Positions 8,202-38,995 are shown, numbered from the stretch's first letter. The stretch is DNA of 64,000 nt from Rhizodiscina lignyota (GCA_010015805.1 ML978127.1:1798001-1862000), one strand, 5' to 3'. Notes: generated by a model from the letters alone, not told the origin. Numbers and translations are program-made.

Positions 8202-11200
8202 TTAGCTTCTGGGCTTGGTGCCTGGCCGTCGTTTGTACTTCCGCGGATCTGTGTGACTCCTCAGTGAATGTTTTTGTAAGCGTTGTGGCTTGCTTCGTGA
8301 TGTCGCAGAGACGACTCCGCGATATGGGTATACAGTGCTGCCTGTTTGCCAGCAGGCTTTGTCCCCTCACCACCACCTTCTATTCTCCATCGAAAGGCTA
8401 GTCATCGTAATCCAAAGCTACTTTCCACCATTATCCTCCCAATGTCGACCATTCAGCCTTACCATCATTGACCATTCTCTATCTAACAGTGCGATCCTCA
8501 GATACAGTTCAAGTGCCTGAGGGCCATAGCGCGTAGATGGCGAACGGCCAATGATGAGAAGGAGGGATGGTCGATATTGGAAGGGTGCTGGCGAAGAAAG
8601 CTTTGGAAGACGAAACCAGCAGTTCGACGGAGAATAGCAGGTGGTGGCAAGATCGAGTAGCCGACATTAGAATGACCAAGTCGTCGCAGCTGCAGCAGCC
8701 GTGAACGGGGGAGGAAGATCGCGACTGACCTTTACGCGACATGCGCAATTTGTCTCTCGTTCCTGTGAATCGTCGCATTACGTTAGCTTGTGTGCAGCAA
8801 GTGTGTCAGACAACTGCCGAAAGACGATTGCAATTCATTGAACGACGTGTAGAGCACAAGGACGTGAGGAATGAGCCGCATCCATTTCAGGAGTCCATTT
8901 CGTGAAGAATAGTCCGAACCCGGCCTAGCGGGCGACGATTATTCCCCGGAATCTTGATCTTCAACGGCGCGCGCGCGCCAAGATTCTTCTGGAATCCGGG
9001 GACCCCGCTTGGCGGCGCAAGAATTTGGCTGGGTGGCATCCAACATACGAACTTTAAATTTCGCCGTCGTATTCCAGAAATTCCGTTCTGGGTCCCATTT
9101 TTTCAATACGGGCACTCCGTGATTCGCCCATTGGAAAAGGAAATACCAGGTAGTCACCGCCAATGGGGGCATTCCCGCCACCAGGAATCGCAACCAACAG
9201 AAACAGAAAGACAATCCCGAGTAGGGCTCACTCTCGACAGCTCGCGTGGCCAACTGGGATGCACACTGCCTGGCCCTGACAGTGTTGGGAGTTCCGACTG
9301 ACTCGGCAGGATCGGGGATGATTCCGAGCTTGTTCGAAGCTCGGCGGGGCAGCGAAGCGTTGGGTTGTGGAAGTGAGCTGCCGATGAAACGTGCTCTCCC
9401 TTGACCCTGCGCTTCTCGAACATGGACAGAAGCATGCGAAACATCCTCACATCGCAACGCTCCTGCAGCATCGAAGCTTCGACAGGCCAGATGATCCGGC
9501 GCACGTCCCGCTTTGCGCAAAGTGCCTAGCAAGGGAGAGCAAACGACTCCGAGGGGTCCTGCAGTGAGGCTTCCAGATGCGTCGGGAATAGCTGAGTCGA
9601 GCAAGGGGAGAGAGCAGCTGAAGTGGAAGCAGAGAAGCGAAAGCGATAAGACACAAGAGAGTCATGAAAAGCTTACCTTTACCGCCCTCCCAGAAGCCAC
9701 TCCCTCTCTTGCCAACGAGAGTTGCGCGACAGATGCCGCAGTCCTCGGGGCGGTAGTTCTGCTCGCGGGAACCTGTGCGCGTTATTTTCCCGTCAGCAAC
9801 ATTCTGTTATAACAATGGAATTCTGATATAGCCTTGGCAGTTTGCCTTTGCGATATGCGGGCCGCAGCCGCATTGAAGGATTTCGAAATGGGGGACGTAC
9901 AGAAGCCACTGTTTGCGCAATTAGTTAGCGGGCCGTTGCATTACGACAGACGAGTGTCAAGGTTGAAGGAAGCAAAAGTCAATTGCGGTGGGCGCAGATG
10001 GTGGCTGCTGCTGCTGCTGCCCAAACAATGAGGCTGTTCGCACGCTCGACGCGAAACGTTGATCACTGTTGCAGCGCAGGAACAAGCACACGTGCGTTGG
10101 CTTGAAAGGGAAATGGTGGGGGTTGTGAGTGCAAGCGTGGTGGGGTCGGCAAGGTGGGGAGTTGGGAAAGCTAAACGCTCGCATCCAGCTCTGCAGCTAG
10201 ACATGACGTCTCGCGATCCTCCCTCCTCGTGCGATTGTGGCTGGTAACCTGTAATTGCACGTGCATAGGTAATAAATGGGTAATTGATGGGCGGCAAGAT
10301 GCGGCAGTGGAAAGCGATGCGGAGTATGCTCTGTCAACTGACCATATCATCCTATTGGCGTGCTCATTGTGGTGATCCGTCGCAGCATCATGGCATCTGC
10401 ACATGGATTAGCAAGAAAAGTCAACGTCGGTCGGATCGCATGATGATTGTTTTCAAGGTTCGAATGTCGAGATGCCTTACCTGTCGCATGGATACACCTT
10501 GGCACAGCAAGAGAACCTTTAACAACCTAGTCAGCGCTATTGAGTGAAGCGGGCCCGCCGTTGAGAGTTTCCCGCGTGTGGATTACCTGAACCAGCGATA
10601 CGACTTGCTGTAGTGGGAGCAACGTCCGCGTCGGGGGAGCTCTTGCCCTGCGACGATACCGAGCTGTTCTTTAGCCTACAGATATTGTCTCAGTTACTGT
10701 GCTACTCTCCCTGCTCGATTTCTGAACGCGGTGTTGTGGAAAGTAAAGTGCCGAAAGGGGCAGATTGATGGTCTGGGTGGCGCGAAATAACGAACGGGAC
10801 CAGCTGATCGTGGCGTTCGTGCCTCTCCCATAATGGAGCTTTACCTTCTTACGGGCTGGCGCGCGGCTAGCTCGAACTATTCAACGGCATCGTCAGCCTT
10901 GTGTCATCATGTCTCTGGGAGCGCTTCCACTCGGTCCCAGAGTTCAATTGCAGCGGGACATCGCAGGACCCTCATCAATTCCCGAGCGCCGTTGGGAGGC
11001 AACCGGTCAAGCGTAGAGCCGGAGACGGTGAATCACGTACCTGCACTTGCGCTAACTTGAAGGAATTTCACTTCCGGGATGGTGAAGGCTGCAAAGAAAC
11101 GGGATGATCAGTCACCTGCGCTTCCGGGATGCAACGGGAGCGCTAAACAAACGATATTGTCGGCGTATCGGGTGACGCACTCATCTTGCGGTGGCACTCT

Positions 11201-31369: not shown

Positions 31370-32355
31370 ATGGCTGCAGAACAGCGCAAGCTGCTCGGTA
31401 CGCGTCCCCTTCTCTCTGATCTACGCGCACAGCGACTAACAGTTATTTTACAGAGCAGCTCATGGGCGAGCAACTCATGTCTGGCCCAGGCACGCGCACT
31501 CCTCAACTCTCAATCACCGACCCCAAAGTCTGCCGCAGCTACCTTGTCGGCACCTGTCCACGCGATCTCTTCACAAACACGAAGCAAGATAACGGCCCAT
31601 GCCCGAAAGTGCACAACGAGGCGCTGAAGAACGAGTACGAAGCCGCCGACGAGCAGCAGAAGCGACGCTGGGGCTTCGAGTACGACTACTTCCGCGACAT
31701 GACCGCCTACGTCGACGACTGTAATCGTAGGATCGATACTGCTGAGAGGCGCTTGGAAAGCACTGCTGATGAGATCAAGAAGAAGAGCGTTTTGGTGAGT
31801 GAACCGATCTCCCCTCATAGCAAGTAGTTTGATGCATTGTAGGTCAAACAGATTTCCAACGCGAAGGAAAACATCACCGCCGGCCTCCAAGAAGTCGAAG
31901 TTCTCGCCAAATTAGGACACGTCAACCTCGCCGTCTCCGAACACTTCAAGGTCATGCTCTACCAGCAAGAGAAGGACAAGTTGGAGCGGCAGTTGAAGGA
32001 CCTGTCCGACACCTCCGGCCCCTCGGGCCACCAGAAGCTGCAGGTCTGCGATGTCTGTGGCGCGTACCTCAGCAGGCTCGACAACGACCGCCGCCTGGCC
32101 GACCACTTCTACGGCAAGATGCACTTGGGCTACGCGCAGATGCGCAAGACATACGAGCAGCTGCAAAAGGAGTTGCAGGGTCGTCCGCCACCCGCTAGGC
32201 AGGATGAATACAACCCTGCAGGACGTGAGATGGCGGGTGGCTATGGCGATCGCGGCCACTATGGAAGAGGAAATTACGGCGGCGCAGGTGGCTATGGACG
32301 CGGACGCGGTGGCGGATACCGTGGTCGTGGCGGATATGGCGGTGGCCGCTGGTAG
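31370..32355 (+). CDS. LUC7: U1 snRNP protein Luc7 (exons 31370-31397, 31454-31794, 31843-32355)
   Basis: MAAEQRKLLEQLM, VCRSYLVGTCP..LFTNTK...CPKVH, QKLQVCDVCGAYLSRLDNDRRLADHFYGKMHLGY; RGG tail. Confidence 0.95.
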
Positions 32356-32489
32356 ACTCATGAAGGACATAAGGTCTCTTCTACCTCTTCTACTTTCACA
32401 CTACAAAGGCTTAGCATAGATACCCAATGAATCAAATGACCTTCTACTCTCCATTGCATTGAACACTTGTCTACCATGTAAAACTTTCT

Positions 32490-33530
32490 ACGGAGGGATG
32501 TTTTTCTCTAACACATGTGTTCGTGCGTTGTGCACTGTCAGTGGAAGAAGGATCTCTTTCATAGTTTCGGTGCTTTCATATATCTCGCTTTACAAGCAGA
32601 AGAAGGGCCTCTTGCTACGTCTCTCTAGCTTCATGTCTTAACATTACGGACCGAAGATATGGCATCCTGCTTAATCGTAGTAGCTTCATAAGCCTTACGC
32701 TGTCGCCACAAGAAATGTCTCTGCTTTAATCTCTGTAGCTCTACACGTAGCATGCTTTGTACGAAAGGGTTTCCGTTAGATCTGCACAATCCCAAATATC
32801 TAACAGTGCGAGGCCGCTGGAATATAGCGCGGCTCTATAGAGCTTTCTCTACGTTTGTATCAAACCACGGAGGTAGCCTCGTGCTCCAGCTTTCATATTT
32901 CCGTACGCTATGCGCTGTCGTCGGAATACACATGCACAGAAACAATGGGCGCTTCGTTGCGCACTATGGTACTGATTCATTGAAGAAGGGTACACAAGGA
33001 GACCATTCATGTCCGACAGGCATGCGTGCCGGATCAGAAGACGGAGATCTAAAGATATAATTGAAATTTAAAGTCTTGCGAGTTCGGGGAGAAGGGTGAC
33101 GCCGAAATCTCTGGTTCATGCAGTGCACCACGTACGAGTTCCACGGAAGAGAGGGTGGGAAGAAACTACTCACGCTCCAGAAGCCAGTGTACAAGAACAG
33201 AGTATGTGTTTCTGCGAATAAAATAGACATTTTTAACGCCATGCGTGGCTGTGGAGAGGAACGTCGTCCGAATTCTGTACACACGCTGTGTACCACGGTT
33301 TAAACTCTTGGAAGAGAGACCTCATCTCCCACTTTCATGTCTTCGAGTGTGATGCACGACACTAGAAGAAGGATATCTACTTATCCGATTGACGATTCAA
33401 GACCAAGAGTACCATGAAGAAAGTCTTAAGAGCTTTGATCGAAGTTGTCATCAAATACGGGCTTCATGGGAGAGAGGCTTCCTCTCCGACTGTCGTGTGT
33501 TCGCGTGTTAAGCAGCACTGACAGAAGATG
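32490..33530. repeat. Highly degenerate ~54-55 bp tandem array (about 19 units), GAAGA orientation
   Basis: GAAGA at 32544, 32599, 32653, 32982, 33037, 33146, 33311, 33365, 33416, 33524 (spacings are near-multiples of 54-55); (A)GCTT(T)C about 25-29 nt upstream in several units. Confidence 0.7.
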
Positions 33531-33672
33531 GAACAACTTGGGCAAAATCTAATCATCAATGGTATTTTACCTAGCAAGCATCATTCTGGTATGCCATTTA
33601 ACTCCATAACTCCATCTCCACCACTGATATTGCTCGCCCACCACTTAAGCCCTCGGTGACCGAAATGACGCT

Positions 33673-35497
33673 CTATTGCCAAACATTCGAAAACAAATCA
33701 TCATTGTTCAACCCGCCGCTAGACGGCTTTTGTGGTGGTTGTTGCTGCTGCTGTGCTGGAGCCGGCGCACTGCTCCAACCGCCAAAGTCATCATCCTGAG
33801 TGACTTGCGGCGGGCTTGTGGGCTTCTGCGCGGCACTGCTACCCCACCCGAAATCGTTCGAGATGCCGTTAGAGGGCATGGACGGCTTCGGTGCGGGCGC
33901 AGCTGCCGCTGTATTCGACGAGCCCCAAACATCGCCCGATGCCCAAGGATCAGCTGTTGAAAAACTCGCCATAGGGGCGGCTTGCTGTCGGGGTGCAGGG
34001 GGCTGCATGGGTTTCGCTGGCTGAGAGAGATTGAACGCGGAGTTCATGGTGGGAGAGGTTGGCTTAGGGACGGGTGCAGGTGCGGATGGCTGAGAAGGCA
34101 TAGAGAGGTCGAATAAATCTCCACCACCACTCATGGGATTGGATGGCTTTGGAGGAGCCGGCGCAGCAGTCGGCGATGTCGCAGAGAAGAAGTCGCCAAA
34201 TCCGCTCGACTGGCTGAATGTTCGTTGGGCTGCGGTAGGTTGGGGGGGAGGGGACGTTGCTGCAGGCTTTTGTGCTGGAGTATCGAAGAAACTGCCGCCG
34301 CCGCCAAAGGAGGAAGCTGATGCAGTTGATGGTTGTCGACGAGCCGTGGCGGCACTTGTGAGATTTGCGAACGGAGAGGGTTTCTGTGGTTGGACGGGCG
34401 GAGATGAGGGAGATGCAAAGCTGAGGCTGCTGAAAGCATCGTTAAGGCCACCAGCGGCATTCTGGTTCATTTGAGTTGGCGACTGTAAAGGCGGCGACTG
34501 CATAGGTGGTGATTGGAAGCCGCCGAAGGAGCCGCCAAAAGAGCCGCTTGAGGAATGATGATGATGCTGCGGCTGTGCTGGCGCTGCAGCTCTTGGAGCT
34601 GATGCATAAAGAGATAGGATCGACTGCTTCAGGTCTGGCCTGGAGGGAACAGCCGACGAAGAGTTTCCGGTGCTGGATGGGCGCTCTGGTGGTGCAGATT
34701 GTGTGCCGCCGAGGAAGTCCAAGCCCAAGAGTGAATCACCAGGCCTCGTCTGCTTTGGTGGAGCTGCTGAAGCTTTGGCTGGGGGCTGTCTCGAAATCGG
34801 CTCAGTCGTGCTGGGTCTCTGCGGCGCATCATTGCCTCCAATCAAATCAACATTCGCTGCCGGCCGTGCTGGAGCTCTGATTATTGGGCCTTGTGCAGAC
34901 TCTCTCACAGATGAGGCGCGCTCAATCTTTGCTTTTTCTTGGACGACATTCAAAGGCTGCGAAATATCCAGATCAGCAATCGTACCCAAGAGTCTCACAG
35001 AGGAATAAATACCACGTCGTCATCTCCTTCCGATCCTAACGTAGCTGGATCCGGCATACCCCCATCCATAACCCATCTCTTGGATTCGTATTTTGTTCGT
35101 ATGAAATTCTCGATTTTAGCTTCGGAGGGGACGTGTCCAGGCGCCAGCTTTGCTTCCCAATACCTACTTATGTTAGAACAATATCCCACATCCAGGAACA
35201 ATCTCGCATATACCTATTTGCTCTTGCATTGCCCCACTTGAGCATACTTTGTAGTTGTTCGTCTGTCCACGAGTCCAAATCCACACTCTTGACCCTGCTA
35301 ATGTGCGTCCCCATGCCACGATGAATGCCTGAACACCTTATGCAGATGAAAATGCCCAGGTTCCAGCTTGCCCATCTCGGATGTTTGTTCCTCTTACAGT
35401 CTGCGCAGCTCTTATTGCTTTCTAGCTTCACAAGACTCTTGAGTGTGGCTCGGTTCTGCTCCGCGCGATCGAGCGCAGGATTACGGCGGTTTGACAT
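33673..35497 (-). CDS. ArfGAP-domain protein, SMAP/Age2-like (exons 35497-35214, 35163-35013, 34956-33673)
   Basis: [45 protein letters not shown]; low-complexity tail with LLGLD, DLFDL, DPW and DDDFG endocytic-type motifs. Confidence 0.93.
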
Positions 35498-35704
35498 CTT
35501 CGGCGGTCACTACAGCTCGTGGGATGTCGAAAGAAATATGCAGAGGAGCTTGTTCAAGCTCGGGAGAGTCGGGGGTGGTTTATAGGTTTGCCAATAGATG
35601 CGAGTTCGTGAAGTTGTTTCTCGAGGATCATAGAGTGCGATTGAGGGATGAAGTGACGACGCGGCAAATGCCGTTGCCAAGCATCTCAGGCTTGAAGACA
35701 ACCC

Positions 35705-36920
35705 TCAGTGTCCTTCTTCCCGAGGAGACATGCTACGTTCCAAAGCCCGTATTCACTCCCAAGGCTATTCTTCACATTTTGCAGGACTACGTTTGAAAGC
35801 TTGATTATATATGCTCACTCTCTTCCTCGAAAAGAGAGATAGCACCTCTCAAGCTGTACAAACCTTGCTCATTTTCATTGTTCTTTGAGCGGTATGCCAG
35901 GTCCGAATGCCCAACACATGTCGGAGAGACCGTTCTTCACGAAAGCGCCGACTGCTTTGAATGCCCATATAGTGTACGCCTTCGTTCTTCTAAGGGAGAA
36001 ATACCGTACTCGGAAGCCTGTAATCTATTTCAGAATTTGCTCTTCCGCCAGAAGCACGCCGTATTCAAAAGCCTGCAATCTATTTTAGAATAGGTTCTTC
36101 CGATAGAAGCACGGCATGTCCGAAAACTCGACGTCTATTTTAGCATTCGCTCTTTGGCTTGATGGGCGGCATGACTGAAAGCTTGCAGTTTGTATTAGTA
36201 TTCGCTCTTTCGATAGAATATGACGGTATGTTTAGAAGCTAGTAATCTCTATTTGGACTGACTCTTCCGAGAAAAGCACGGCATGCTTACAAGTATATCC
36301 TATTTCAAAAACCCCTCTTCCGGCAAAAAGGTAGCACTTCCGAAGGCCTTTAATCTATATCTGAAACTGTTCTTCTGCACAAACGGGACCGCTTCTGCAG
36401 GCTTTTATATGTATCCTATTGCTAATTCTTCTTGTAAAAGACGCCGTGCCCGAACGCTCGTAATCTATCTCATAAACCCTTCTTCCGTGCAAAAGCCATA
36501 GTCGCTGGAGGCTTCTGTATCTGCCTCGGTGATTGTTCTTCTTACAACGGACGACATTCCAGAAAGCCCATATCTATTTAAGAATCCATTCTCCCGCATA
36601 ATGAACGCTGTCGATCGAGGCATGAGTGTCTTACTTTGTATCTCTCTTTCTCACGAAGGGCGGCATGCCTAAATGCTCGTATCTAATCAATGATTTATTC
36701 TTCTGTGAAATAGGTATCATCATTGGAGGCTTGAATAGCTGTGTTGTCATTCGTAGTCAAAGAGAATGCACAGCTCCAACAAGGTAGATAGTCTATCTTA
36801 GAATTCGCTCTTCCACTAGAAAGGCGGCATGTTCGAAAGCTAGCAATGTATTTTAGATACCCTCATTCCGAAAAGAGAACACCATCGTCAGAGGCTTGTA
36901 TACCTATGCTATTATCCGTG
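35705..36920. repeat. Degenerate ~55 bp tandem array (about 22 units), approximate consensus GCTCTTCCGNTAGAAGCACGGCATGTYCGAAAGCTTGYAATCTATTTTAGAATTC
   Basis: TCTTC/TCTTT at 35715, 35769, 35821, 35882, 35934, 35986, 36041, 36096, 36151, 36206, 36263, 36316, 36371, 36427, 36481, 36537, 36645, 36699, 36809; central units align over their full length. Confidence 0.9.
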
Positions 36921-37207
36921 GTCAAGAAGAGTGTACAGTTCCAACGTGTACGCATTGTATCGGCTGGGACAGGCTGGTCGTCCTGCAAGTCCGCTTTTCG
37001 GAGGCGCATATACGTAATTCATTCAGATTCTGTCACGGTTAAATGCGGCAAACATAAGGCATGCATGGGTCATCACTGTCATTTCATAAGCTGTACATGG
37101 CAAATTGAATTGAAATTTCCCCCTCATGGGGGATCATTGGTATTTAAGAAAAAGAAAACGCCAGCTAGCTACATTTGGAAATAATTGAAAGCGCTAACTT
37201 AGTTAAG

Positions 37208-38995
37208 TTAGACTTGAGGAGAGATCGGGCTAGCCTTGGAACGGCGATAGCCGACGACGGATGCGACTGCCACTATAACGACCACCGTGAAGGCGCTGAG
37301 AATCGCGTAGATATGCGGAAGGAGCGTCTCTGTGAGGAAGGCGCGCGGCAGCAAGGGCCAAAAAACGCGTATAATCCATGGCAAAGCTGTGTCACATTAG
37401 TTTCTATAAGAAGAATGTTGAGTAAGTTCTTACCGAATAGCTGGAAGAACGTATCTCGGGTCTTCTCCTCTAAGAACCACTTCGAGATGTAATGCATGAA
37501 CATGAGGGTTGACAGGAAAAACAGTTCCGAGCCGAATTCCCGCATGCTATTGAAAAGGTTCATAAAGTCAGAGATATTATTCTTGATCGACTCGACGTTC
37601 TCCCGGGCATGAGCACTCGTGTTGGCGAGAATAGTCATTTGCTGGGTCTCGTTCTTGATTTGTGCGATATGGAAGCTCGACATCTGGACAATGTGGTCGG
37701 TCATCTGGGATGCTGTTGCAAGACCGCCTCGAAGTTGATCCAGTTCCTCCATTGGCATTTTCTGCATCAATTTGGCGATCCGCTTCGCATGCTCGGTGAC
37801 GATCTGCATGTGATGCTTCTGATCCGCGGCGAGATCTTGCGACTCCGAAAGACGGGTGATGAAGGATAGGAATTGTGCATTGAGATTGTCCATATAAGTT
37901 CTGCCTTGAGTTACATCCTGATGAGACAATTAGCATGTTCCAAAGAGGGAATTGCCATGCACTTACACCCTGGAAGGCCTCAAGCGATGACACAGTCTTG
38001 CCCAGATCTCCATGAAGGCCAGCAACGTGGGCCTTGACTCTCTTGAACATCTCATTCACCTCGATGTCATAGTCACGAGTCTTGCGAAGAACCTCGTCTT
38101 GGAGTTTGATAAGCCACTTTTCGGCAGCAACTGCTGCTTCTTCTTGGCGCTTGATAGCATTATCACTGGCGGCGACGAGGTCTCCGGTGCTTTTCACCAT
38201 TGACTTGAAAGTGTGGATGAGCGTCTCTATTGAAACCGTCAGCTGCGTGCGCGGGGCATCGATGAGAAATCAGATACAGGTTCTGGGCAAAGCTTCACAT
38301 ACCTCTGTCAATTGCCTCGCGACTGGCATGGCAAACTACCATGGCATTCTGTCTGGCGTTGCTGTAGCTTGTCCAAGTCTGTGCCTTATCACTAAGGGCC
38401 GTGATGCAGCGTTGAACGTGTGTCAGACTGTAATGCGGGTAGCAAGTGCCATCGTTCGTCTGGCGGGGCTGAACCGAACCCTTGGTGGACTTGAACCAGT
38501 CGCTGTCCTTGCATGCTTCGATGGATGGAGTGAATCGGGCGCATTGCTTGGGGACTGATGCCTGTGCGGAATTCAACTCGCAAGCAGCAAGCTTGACTGC
38601 GTACTCGTTCCTTGTAGCGTCGAGCATCTTTTCGACATCCTTGGTCATTGTGGAATCGTAACCCTGGCCGAGAGAGTGGCACGAATCAATGAGATCGACA
38701 GTTGCGGCCTGGTGGCAGGACGGAGCTGAGCGGAGAGAGATAATGAGGGATTCAGCCTGGGCGAAGACCTCGGTGGGAGACTTCTGGTGAGTGCTAAGAA
38801 GATTGATGATTTCAGGAGTTGCTGCTTTGATGGTCATTGGTCCAGCTAGAAAGAATCATCGTTAGGTTACGAAAGACATCATGTTCGCAGAAGGCACAGC
38901 CAAATTCCACCTTACTAACCTTCCGGGAAGGACGAAACTCCATGGCAGAGCAGAGCTCCGATAAGAAAGAGCGCAGTCATAAGGATATGCGCCAT
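37208..38995 (-). CDS. KAR5: Nuclear membrane fusion protein, Kar5/Tht1-like, 5 exons
   Basis: Signal peptide; Cys-rich domain SCHQAATVDLIDSC...YAVKLAACEL...VPKQC...CITAL...QTWTSYSNARQNAMVVCHASR; coiled coil; C-terminal hydrophobic segments. Confidence 0.8.

Follow-up and report, generated by a model that had tools for sequence, protein, structure and literature searches.

The window analyzed here is a stretch of 64,000 nucleotides of Rhizodiscina lignyota DNA (GCA_010015805.1, ML978127.1:1798001-1862000), and positions are counted from its first letter. An ArfGAP gene in this window is bracketed by two arrays of approximately 55-bp units, and the features around it are, in order:

31420-32352, plus strand: LUC7 gene, in two open frames (Pfam PF03194, E 7.1e-39 and 1.5e-34).
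32497-33531, minus strand: left array, about 19 more decayed 55-bp units, inverted, with GAAGA cores on the plus strand.
33673-35497, minus strand: ArfGAP gene (exon 1, 35168-35497; large exon, 33673-34998), between the two arrays.
35498-35711, minus strand: unique spacer of 214 bp that separates the right array from the start codon of ArfGAP.
35712-36970, plus strand: right array, a head-to-tail series of 23 units, each about 55 bp long, whose TCTTC core reads on the plus strand.
36368-36970, plus strand: higher-order part of the right array, where the units form A-B dimers (110 bp) and an A-B-C trimer (165 bp; direct-repeat families D8 and D9).
37273-38837, minus strand: hypothetical protein gene (NCBI NA57DRAFT_77147, Rhizodiscina lignyota, 99% identity).

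The frame of ArfGAP exon 1 (35168-35497) matches Pfam PF01412 with an E value of 2.7e-34, which confirms the name given to this gene in the original prediction, made from the sequence alone. Its ATG is at 35497 on the minus strand; relatives match the protein from residue 1, and up to 80 metagenome loci have a match to residues 1-96. With the ATG in this position, the right array starts 215 bp upstream of it. The intervening spacer presumably comprises the proximal promoter and the 5' UTR; a profile of the array unit has no plus-strand match in it at E ≤10, and one weak minus-strand match (E 9.3) at 35687-35727. The gene on the far side of the right array had been labeled KAR5, but it is a "hypothetical protein" according to NCBI, and its product matches Pfam Tht1 (the Kar5 family) only at E 0.65 (9.1 bits, with a cut-off of 21), so that this label is unconfirmed. 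In the 3' flank of this gene, just outside the right array, there are palindromes at 37120-37135 and 37190-37215 (a C5...G5 stem; an AT-rich dyad), which may be features of the terminator region. An ATG-started ORF of 112 aa (36846-37184, plus strand) overlaps the edge of the right array; it is probably spurious, since a search of the protein collection yielded no homologue with a length of 61-196 aa.

The original prediction described the right array as about 22 units of about 55 bp. When units are anchored on TCTTC-like cores, 23 are found, and autocorrelation, which had been proposed as a check, has a clear peak at lag 55 over positions 35705-36920 (match 0.401, z 13.1 from 200 shuffles) with harmonics at lags 110 (z 9.8), 165 (z 9.7) and 218 (z 6.5). 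A direct-repeat search of the array yields eight multi-copy families, with spacings of 55, 110, 165 and 219-220. Given the peak at lag 55 and its harmonics, the right array is a minisatellite, in the sense of head-to-tail units of 10-100 bp repeated beyond chance. The core spacings (n=22) range from 52 to 61 nt; 15 of the 22 are 54-56 nt, and ten are exactly 55 nt. Mean pairwise identity between the units is 46%, and 71% for the best pair. Tandem Repeats Finder, the other check that had been proposed, misses the array at a minimum score of 30 because the units are too diverged, and its sole report between 34000 and 39000 is a 12-bp coding repeat.

Some parts of the unit are nevertheless well kept. 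Columns T4, T7, A32, G34 and T44 are near-invariant, being retained in at least 90% of the right-array units; they correspond to two of the T in TTCTTC, to A and G within a GAAAGC block, and to one T in a TCTAT block. The unit profile matches 22 of the 23 units at E ≤0.12, with scores of 22-30 bits in the central units and 9-15 bits in u01-u05 at the left edge, nearest the ATG. In the right half of the array, the best lag is 109-110 across 36151-37050, and lag-2 identity (0.52) is higher than lag-1 identity (0.44) in units 12-23, from which it follows that the later duplications there were of dimers, plus one trimer.

Neither array encodes protein. In the right array, each of the six frames has 14-24 stops, and the three-base periodicity has a z of 0.15, compared to 18 and 8 in the flanking exons, in agreement with the predicted non-coding nature of this DNA. 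In the left array, there are 9-21 stops per frame and the three-base periodicity has a z of -1.4. A Logan contig built from reads of the single DNA run listed with this stretch, which is probably the assembly's source, is identical to the window sequence over 35000-37600, so the right array is not an assembly artefact. RIP is not supported: the indices are 0.89 (TpA/ApT) and 1.20 ((CpA+TpG)/(ApC+GpT)), with 0.51-0.82 and 1.06-1.62 in other ORF-free stretches, and about 64% of the changes fitted among right-array units are transitions, compared to the transition-only spectrum expected of RIP. The right array is thus real, non-coding, heavily decayed and very old, and it is without sign of recent turnover.

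The predicted conservation of the TCTTC core also stands. The column sum of this block in the right array is 93, compared to 82.8 ± 3.5 in uniform-rate simulations on the fitted tree, only one in 100 of which is as high; when the units are cut at fixed steps rather than anchored on the core, the sum is 93-98. HKY+G is better than HKY by 7.1 log-likelihood units (alpha 3.3), the variance of column conservation is 13.4 (8.5 ± 1.65 in 100 simulations), and 20 or more of the 23 units agree in five columns (1.26 ± 1.16 expected). With fixed-step cuts, the block that is kept best in the left array is TCTTC as well, at 60-78 of 95. The excess conservation of short blocks in the right array is mild, and it is real. 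Unit lengths in this array also show deviations followed by opposite ones (lag-1 p 0.02 overall, 0.04 in the center), with a net drift of -6 nt over 22 units, but this is not evidence of a constraint on phase, since dimer duplications and the placement of the core are confounding. The original prediction had taken the spacing as a sign of phased binding sites and had invoked nucleosomes and helical turns. Neither idea fared well: tandem duplication followed by substitution suffices to give such spacing, and there is no significant 10-11-bp WW periodicity in the right array (the best p value is 0.08, at 10.5 bp) that would speak for nucleosomes or for DNA curvature.

The left array, located between the 3' end of LUC7 and the 3' end of ArfGAP, was first hinted at by a weak lag-165 signal downstream of ArfGAP. 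Cores of the GAAGA type, which is TCTTC reverse-complemented, recur in it every 49-59 nt, and its periodogram has a peak at 54.5 bp with a power of 6.13, compared to a null maximum of 1.81 ± 0.48 that reached this height in none of 200 shuffles; each half of the array is significant alone. Its true limits may be approximately 32412-33590. When 635 sliding windows are placed across the 64 kb, the 55-bp power exceeds 3.3 only at 32401-33600 (seven sliding windows) and at 35701-37100 (nine). The next-highest periodic power, 3.22 at about 56.5 bp in 9101-9700, could be due to chance or to a very decayed relic. Within the ArfGAP gene itself, the large exon has an autocorrelation at lag 177 (33751-34350, z 5.8), and a 12-bp unit is tandemly repeated 2.5 times at 34518-34547; these signals in the tail of ArfGAP are probably low-complexity coding repeats.

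How are the two arrays related? Dimer, trimer and tetramer profiles made from the right array only match 32514-32607 on the minus strand (E 0.0015, 3.8e-4 and 4.1e-4 in the 64-kb window), while their next best match in the window has an E value of 0.57 or worse. Scanning the genome with a profile of the units had been proposed as a check, and within the window such profiles match the inverted left array. When the left array is reverse-complemented and cross-correlated with the right, z is 4.97, and all ten top offsets fall at phase 2-9 modulo 55, whereas 12 control cross-correlations have z ≤3.4 and scattered phases. In a joint alignment, the left and right consensus units are alike at 32 of 55 columns, and in both of them a GCTTTC block is located 27 nt ahead of the core. 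Among units of the right array, identity is 0.43; it is 0.368 among those of the left, and 0.367 between left and right. Inverted-repeat pairs I2, I11 and I13 from a repeat search also support the left array. The significant profile match is limited to the two outermost left units, and the remainder of the left array is identified by its periodicity, shared phase and shared core.

The arms are nearly equal in length, with about 19 and 23 units, or about 1.04 and 1.26 kb. A mirror-image collinearity of individual units is best at a shift of three units (permutation p 0.31) and is outscored by a control order that is not mirrored, in a comparison that has low power at 37% identity. The outer flanks are no more alike than shuffled sequence in inverted or direct local alignment (p 0.43 and 0.58), although the fuzzy limits of the arrays could hide a short duplication, and there is no similarity between the spacer at 35498-35711 and the left inner flank. 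Taken together, the two arrays are a homologous, inverted and very old pair of 55-bp minisatellites that brackets ArfGAP. The original single-array view was thus correct for the right array, but overlooked the inverted twin as well as the flipped ArfGAP gene between them.

The orientation of ArfGAP is apparent from a comparison with relatives. A metagenome scan with ArfGAP exon 1 yielded 329 relatives, 80 of which were analyzed (367 kb in total). In four of these (L036, L041, L042 and L045), LUC7 is located upstream of ArfGAP and shares its strand; about 670-680 bp separate the last aligned LUC7 residue from the start of the ArfGAP match. In the R. lignyota window, LUC7 and ArfGAP have remained neighbors, but they are convergent, and ArfGAP is therefore inverted relative to LUC7. 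The inverted segment is 2.1 kb, and its two ends are occupied by the two inverted arrays. The arrangement of LUC7 and ArfGAP in the window is absent from the 80 of 329 loci analyzed, 26 of which have at least 3.5 kb of DNA downstream of the ATG. Because LUC7 is upstream in only four of the 47 loci that have 1 kb or more of upstream DNA, is absent from the 1287 nt upstream at L002 (at 88% identity, the closest analyzed locus with upstream DNA), and the relatives are distant, the direction of the flip is one that we infer. The nearest upstream ORF of at least 150 aa is 1776 bp away in the window, compared to a median of 567 bp (range 76-2318) in 33 loci, and the extra DNA upstream of the R. lignyota ArfGAP, about 1.2 kb, corresponds to the length of the right array.

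The arrays themselves appear to be peculiar to R. lignyota among the loci compared. Across the 80 of 329 loci (367 kb) there is no array, no noncoding periodicity and no similarity to the upstream region of the window, and unit, dimer and trimer profiles have no match better than E 1.9. The spacers of the four tandem LUC7-ArfGAP loci, which are distant relatives with 79-81% identity in the ArfGAP domain, have no array. Homologues of the 37273-38837 product are likewise absent from these 80 of 329 loci, even at E 10. Upstream of the ArfGAP orthologue in L079 (2401-3100), two adjacent sliding windows have a power of 3.4-3.7 at 51-51.5 bp, a signal not comparable to the runs of seven and nine in R. 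lignyota.

How did two inverted arrays come to lie at the ends of a single gene? The arrays are probably the scars of an old single-gene micro-inversion of ArfGAP rather than a working signal, although we hold this view with some reservation. A single event fits three independent observations: the two arrays are homologous and of opposite orientation, ArfGAP between them is flipped, and it has kept its adjacency to LUC7. Ancestrally, a 55-bp array would have stood in the spacer between LUC7 and ArfGAP, and the micro-inversion would have included ArfGAP plus all or part of this array. Two versions of the event can be envisaged. In the first, the array would have been duplicated: staggered breaks on either side of it, followed by fill-in and end joining, would have left an inverted copy at each breakpoint. 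In the second, a break inside the array would have split it into two parts. Afterwards, point substitutions and a few small indels would have eroded both arms, and the right arm would have undergone a few later dimer and trimer duplications. On this account, the arrays need no present function. Staggered-break duplication should leave arms of similar length, and the two arms here have about 19 and 23 units; the test of mirror collinearity (p 0.31) lacks power, so that duplication and splitting are not separable by it. None of the 80 of 329 loci has a single array in the spacer between LUC7 and ArfGAP. The TCTTC core also counts against a pure scar, since a scar does not predict that this block should be kept above the level of neutral simulations.

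The main rival to a micro-inversion scar is an inversion of the foldback type, in which the arrays would belong to a dispersed, possibly mobile family of 55-bp arrays, and ectopic recombination between two inverted copies would have flipped ArfGAP. The architecture is suggestive, with inverted arms of tandem units, 1.0-1.3 kb long, around a 2.1-kb loop, and the same short core is kept in both arms, as binding sites at transposon ends would be. On the other hand, there is no terminal inverted similarity beyond the arrays and no direct repeat at their outer ends, no other copy is found by the profiles in the 64-kb window, no other contig in a 34-Mb read assembly is at least 80% alike, and the loop is a conserved housekeeping gene still beside its ancestral neighbor, LUC7. 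Such an origin is conceivable, but unlikely. A more far-reaching proposal would be that the arrays constitute a recombinogenic foldback-like family, with TCTTC perhaps bound by a protein, whose inverted pairs flip single genes and thereby drive the small inversions of Dothideomycete mesosynteny; we regard this as speculative and unlikely. Alternatively, two ordinary decaying minisatellites might lie close to one another by chance, and the difference in ArfGAP orientation would be unrelated. Inversions do often rearrange gene order in Dothideomycetes (PMC3516569). However, the periodicity is confined to these two stretches within 64 kb, the arrays share their unit length, core, second block and phase and are mutually inverted, and they are located exactly at both ends of the one flipped gene. 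A chance association is already disfavored by these facts, and it is quite improbable.

Do the arrays have a function? Since TCTTC is kept above neutral expectation, some residual protein binding is possible, and, judging from the sequence, the arrays could be putative phased platforms for protein binding (TCTTC, A.GC and TCT.T every 55 bp) that act as an enhancer, silencer or boundary flanking ArfGAP. The rate heterogeneity among sites found with HKY+G would suit such a role, as would the variance in column conservation and the five kept columns, both above simulation, the TCTTC block sum of 93-98 together with the retention of the same block in the left array, and the tendency of unit lengths to compensate (lag-1 p 0.02). 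However, the heterogeneity is mild, and both arms may have inherited the core pattern from an ancestral array that was already diverged, so that they are not independent replicates. Nothing similar is found upstream or downstream of ArfGAP in the analyzed relatives, the WW phasing at 10.5 bp is missing, and the five right-array units innermost to the gene have scores of only 9-15 bits, compared to 22-30 bits in the center. In a study of 143 promoter tandem repeats in Aspergillus, 4.3% of the relationships tested with expression of the downstream gene were significant (PMC3516485). A platform of this kind has no support beyond the conserved core and is improbable.

That the arrays are transcribed and processed into small RNAs, or form a structured non-coding RNA, is barely credible. 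The suggestion originated with a mini-hairpin, and a CTTC-N5-GAAG stem can indeed be drawn in some central units, but there is no sequence evidence in its favor: the CTTC and GAAG positions of right-array units pair in 63.0% of cells, compared to 64.3 ± 2.3% in shuffled units (381 of 500 shuffles are as high), RNAalifold finds no pairs and hence no consensus structure, and right-array segments of 110 and 220 nt have minimum free energies no better than those of shuffles (mean z of +0.1 to +0.6 on both strands). A search of Rfam with the right array at E values up to 10 returned noise only (best E 3.3). As a whole, then, the original prediction was right about a non-coding array with a conserved core, while the functions that it inferred are mostly unsupported.

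Satellite and minisatellite arrays typically have higher-order repeats, conserved and variable parts of the unit, and more diverged edges. The R. lignyota arrays share with these the head-to-tail units, the dimer and trimer structure, the division of the unit into conserved and variable parts, and the weaker edge units, but they are a pair at a single locus in gene-dense DNA, and not a centromeric or heterochromatic block. Foldback and Galileo-type transposons have long terminal inverted repeats made up of tandem subrepeats and are associated with inversions, and in Drosophila, Galileo and foldback elements make inversions. The resemblance here lies in the long inverted arms of tandem units (about 1.04 and 1.26 kb) around a central loop and in the association with an inversion; the differences are that there is no target-site duplication, there are no unique conserved termini and no transposase, and the loop is a conserved host gene in its ancestral neighborhood.

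A precedent for the micro-inversion scar is the staggered-break model of inversions with inverted duplications (Ranz et al. 2007, PLoS Biol, PMC1885836); in Drosophila, such duplications flank 17 of 29 inversions. As in the cases presented there, the R. lignyota segment is inverted with respect to the outgroup and has homologous sequence in opposite orientation at both ends, with arms of similar length. Unlike in those cases, the duplicated sequence is a tandem array, and the segment, about 2 kb long, contains one gene only and belongs to a fungus; in addition, the mirror collinearity of the copies is not significant here (p 0.31, with low power), and the ancestral single copy is not observed. 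A study of 18 Dothideomycete genomes (Ohm et al. 2012, PLoS Pathog, PMC3516569) reported simple repeats near inversion breakpoints and left the mechanism open. The R. lignyota inversion is similar to these mesosynteny inversions in that it occurred in the same fungal class, is small and intrachromosomal, and has repeats at both boundaries. However, the repeats of that study are of low complexity, such as dinucleotide runs, and lie within 500 bp of the breakpoints, whereas here they are arrays of 1.0-1.3 kb, consist of a complex 55-bp unit, and are mutually homologous and inverted.

Tandem repeats are also known from fungal promoters (review PMC3899988; PMC3516485), and like these, the right array fills the upstream region of a gene. 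The promoter repeats of these two sources are of short unit, near-identical and variable in copy number, while the R. lignyota array has long units with 46% identity. The accessible portions of the literature on 55-bp tandem repeats and minisatellites contained nothing on fungi, and those of the literature on minisatellites in Dothideomycetes and other filamentous fungi, and on R. lignyota, did not describe such arrays.

One practical lesson is that a phased array found beside a gene calls for a look at the gene's opposite flank, where a partner array may lie. More broadly, the gene order of Dothideomycetes has been scrambled by many small inversions, and the R. lignyota locus, with one gene flipped beside a conserved neighbor and kilobase-long inverted arrays of one complex minisatellite at both ends, may be a readable molecular example of such an event. 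If confirmed by close relatives, it would serve to separate staggered-break duplication from a break inside a fragile array and from recombination between inverted arrays.
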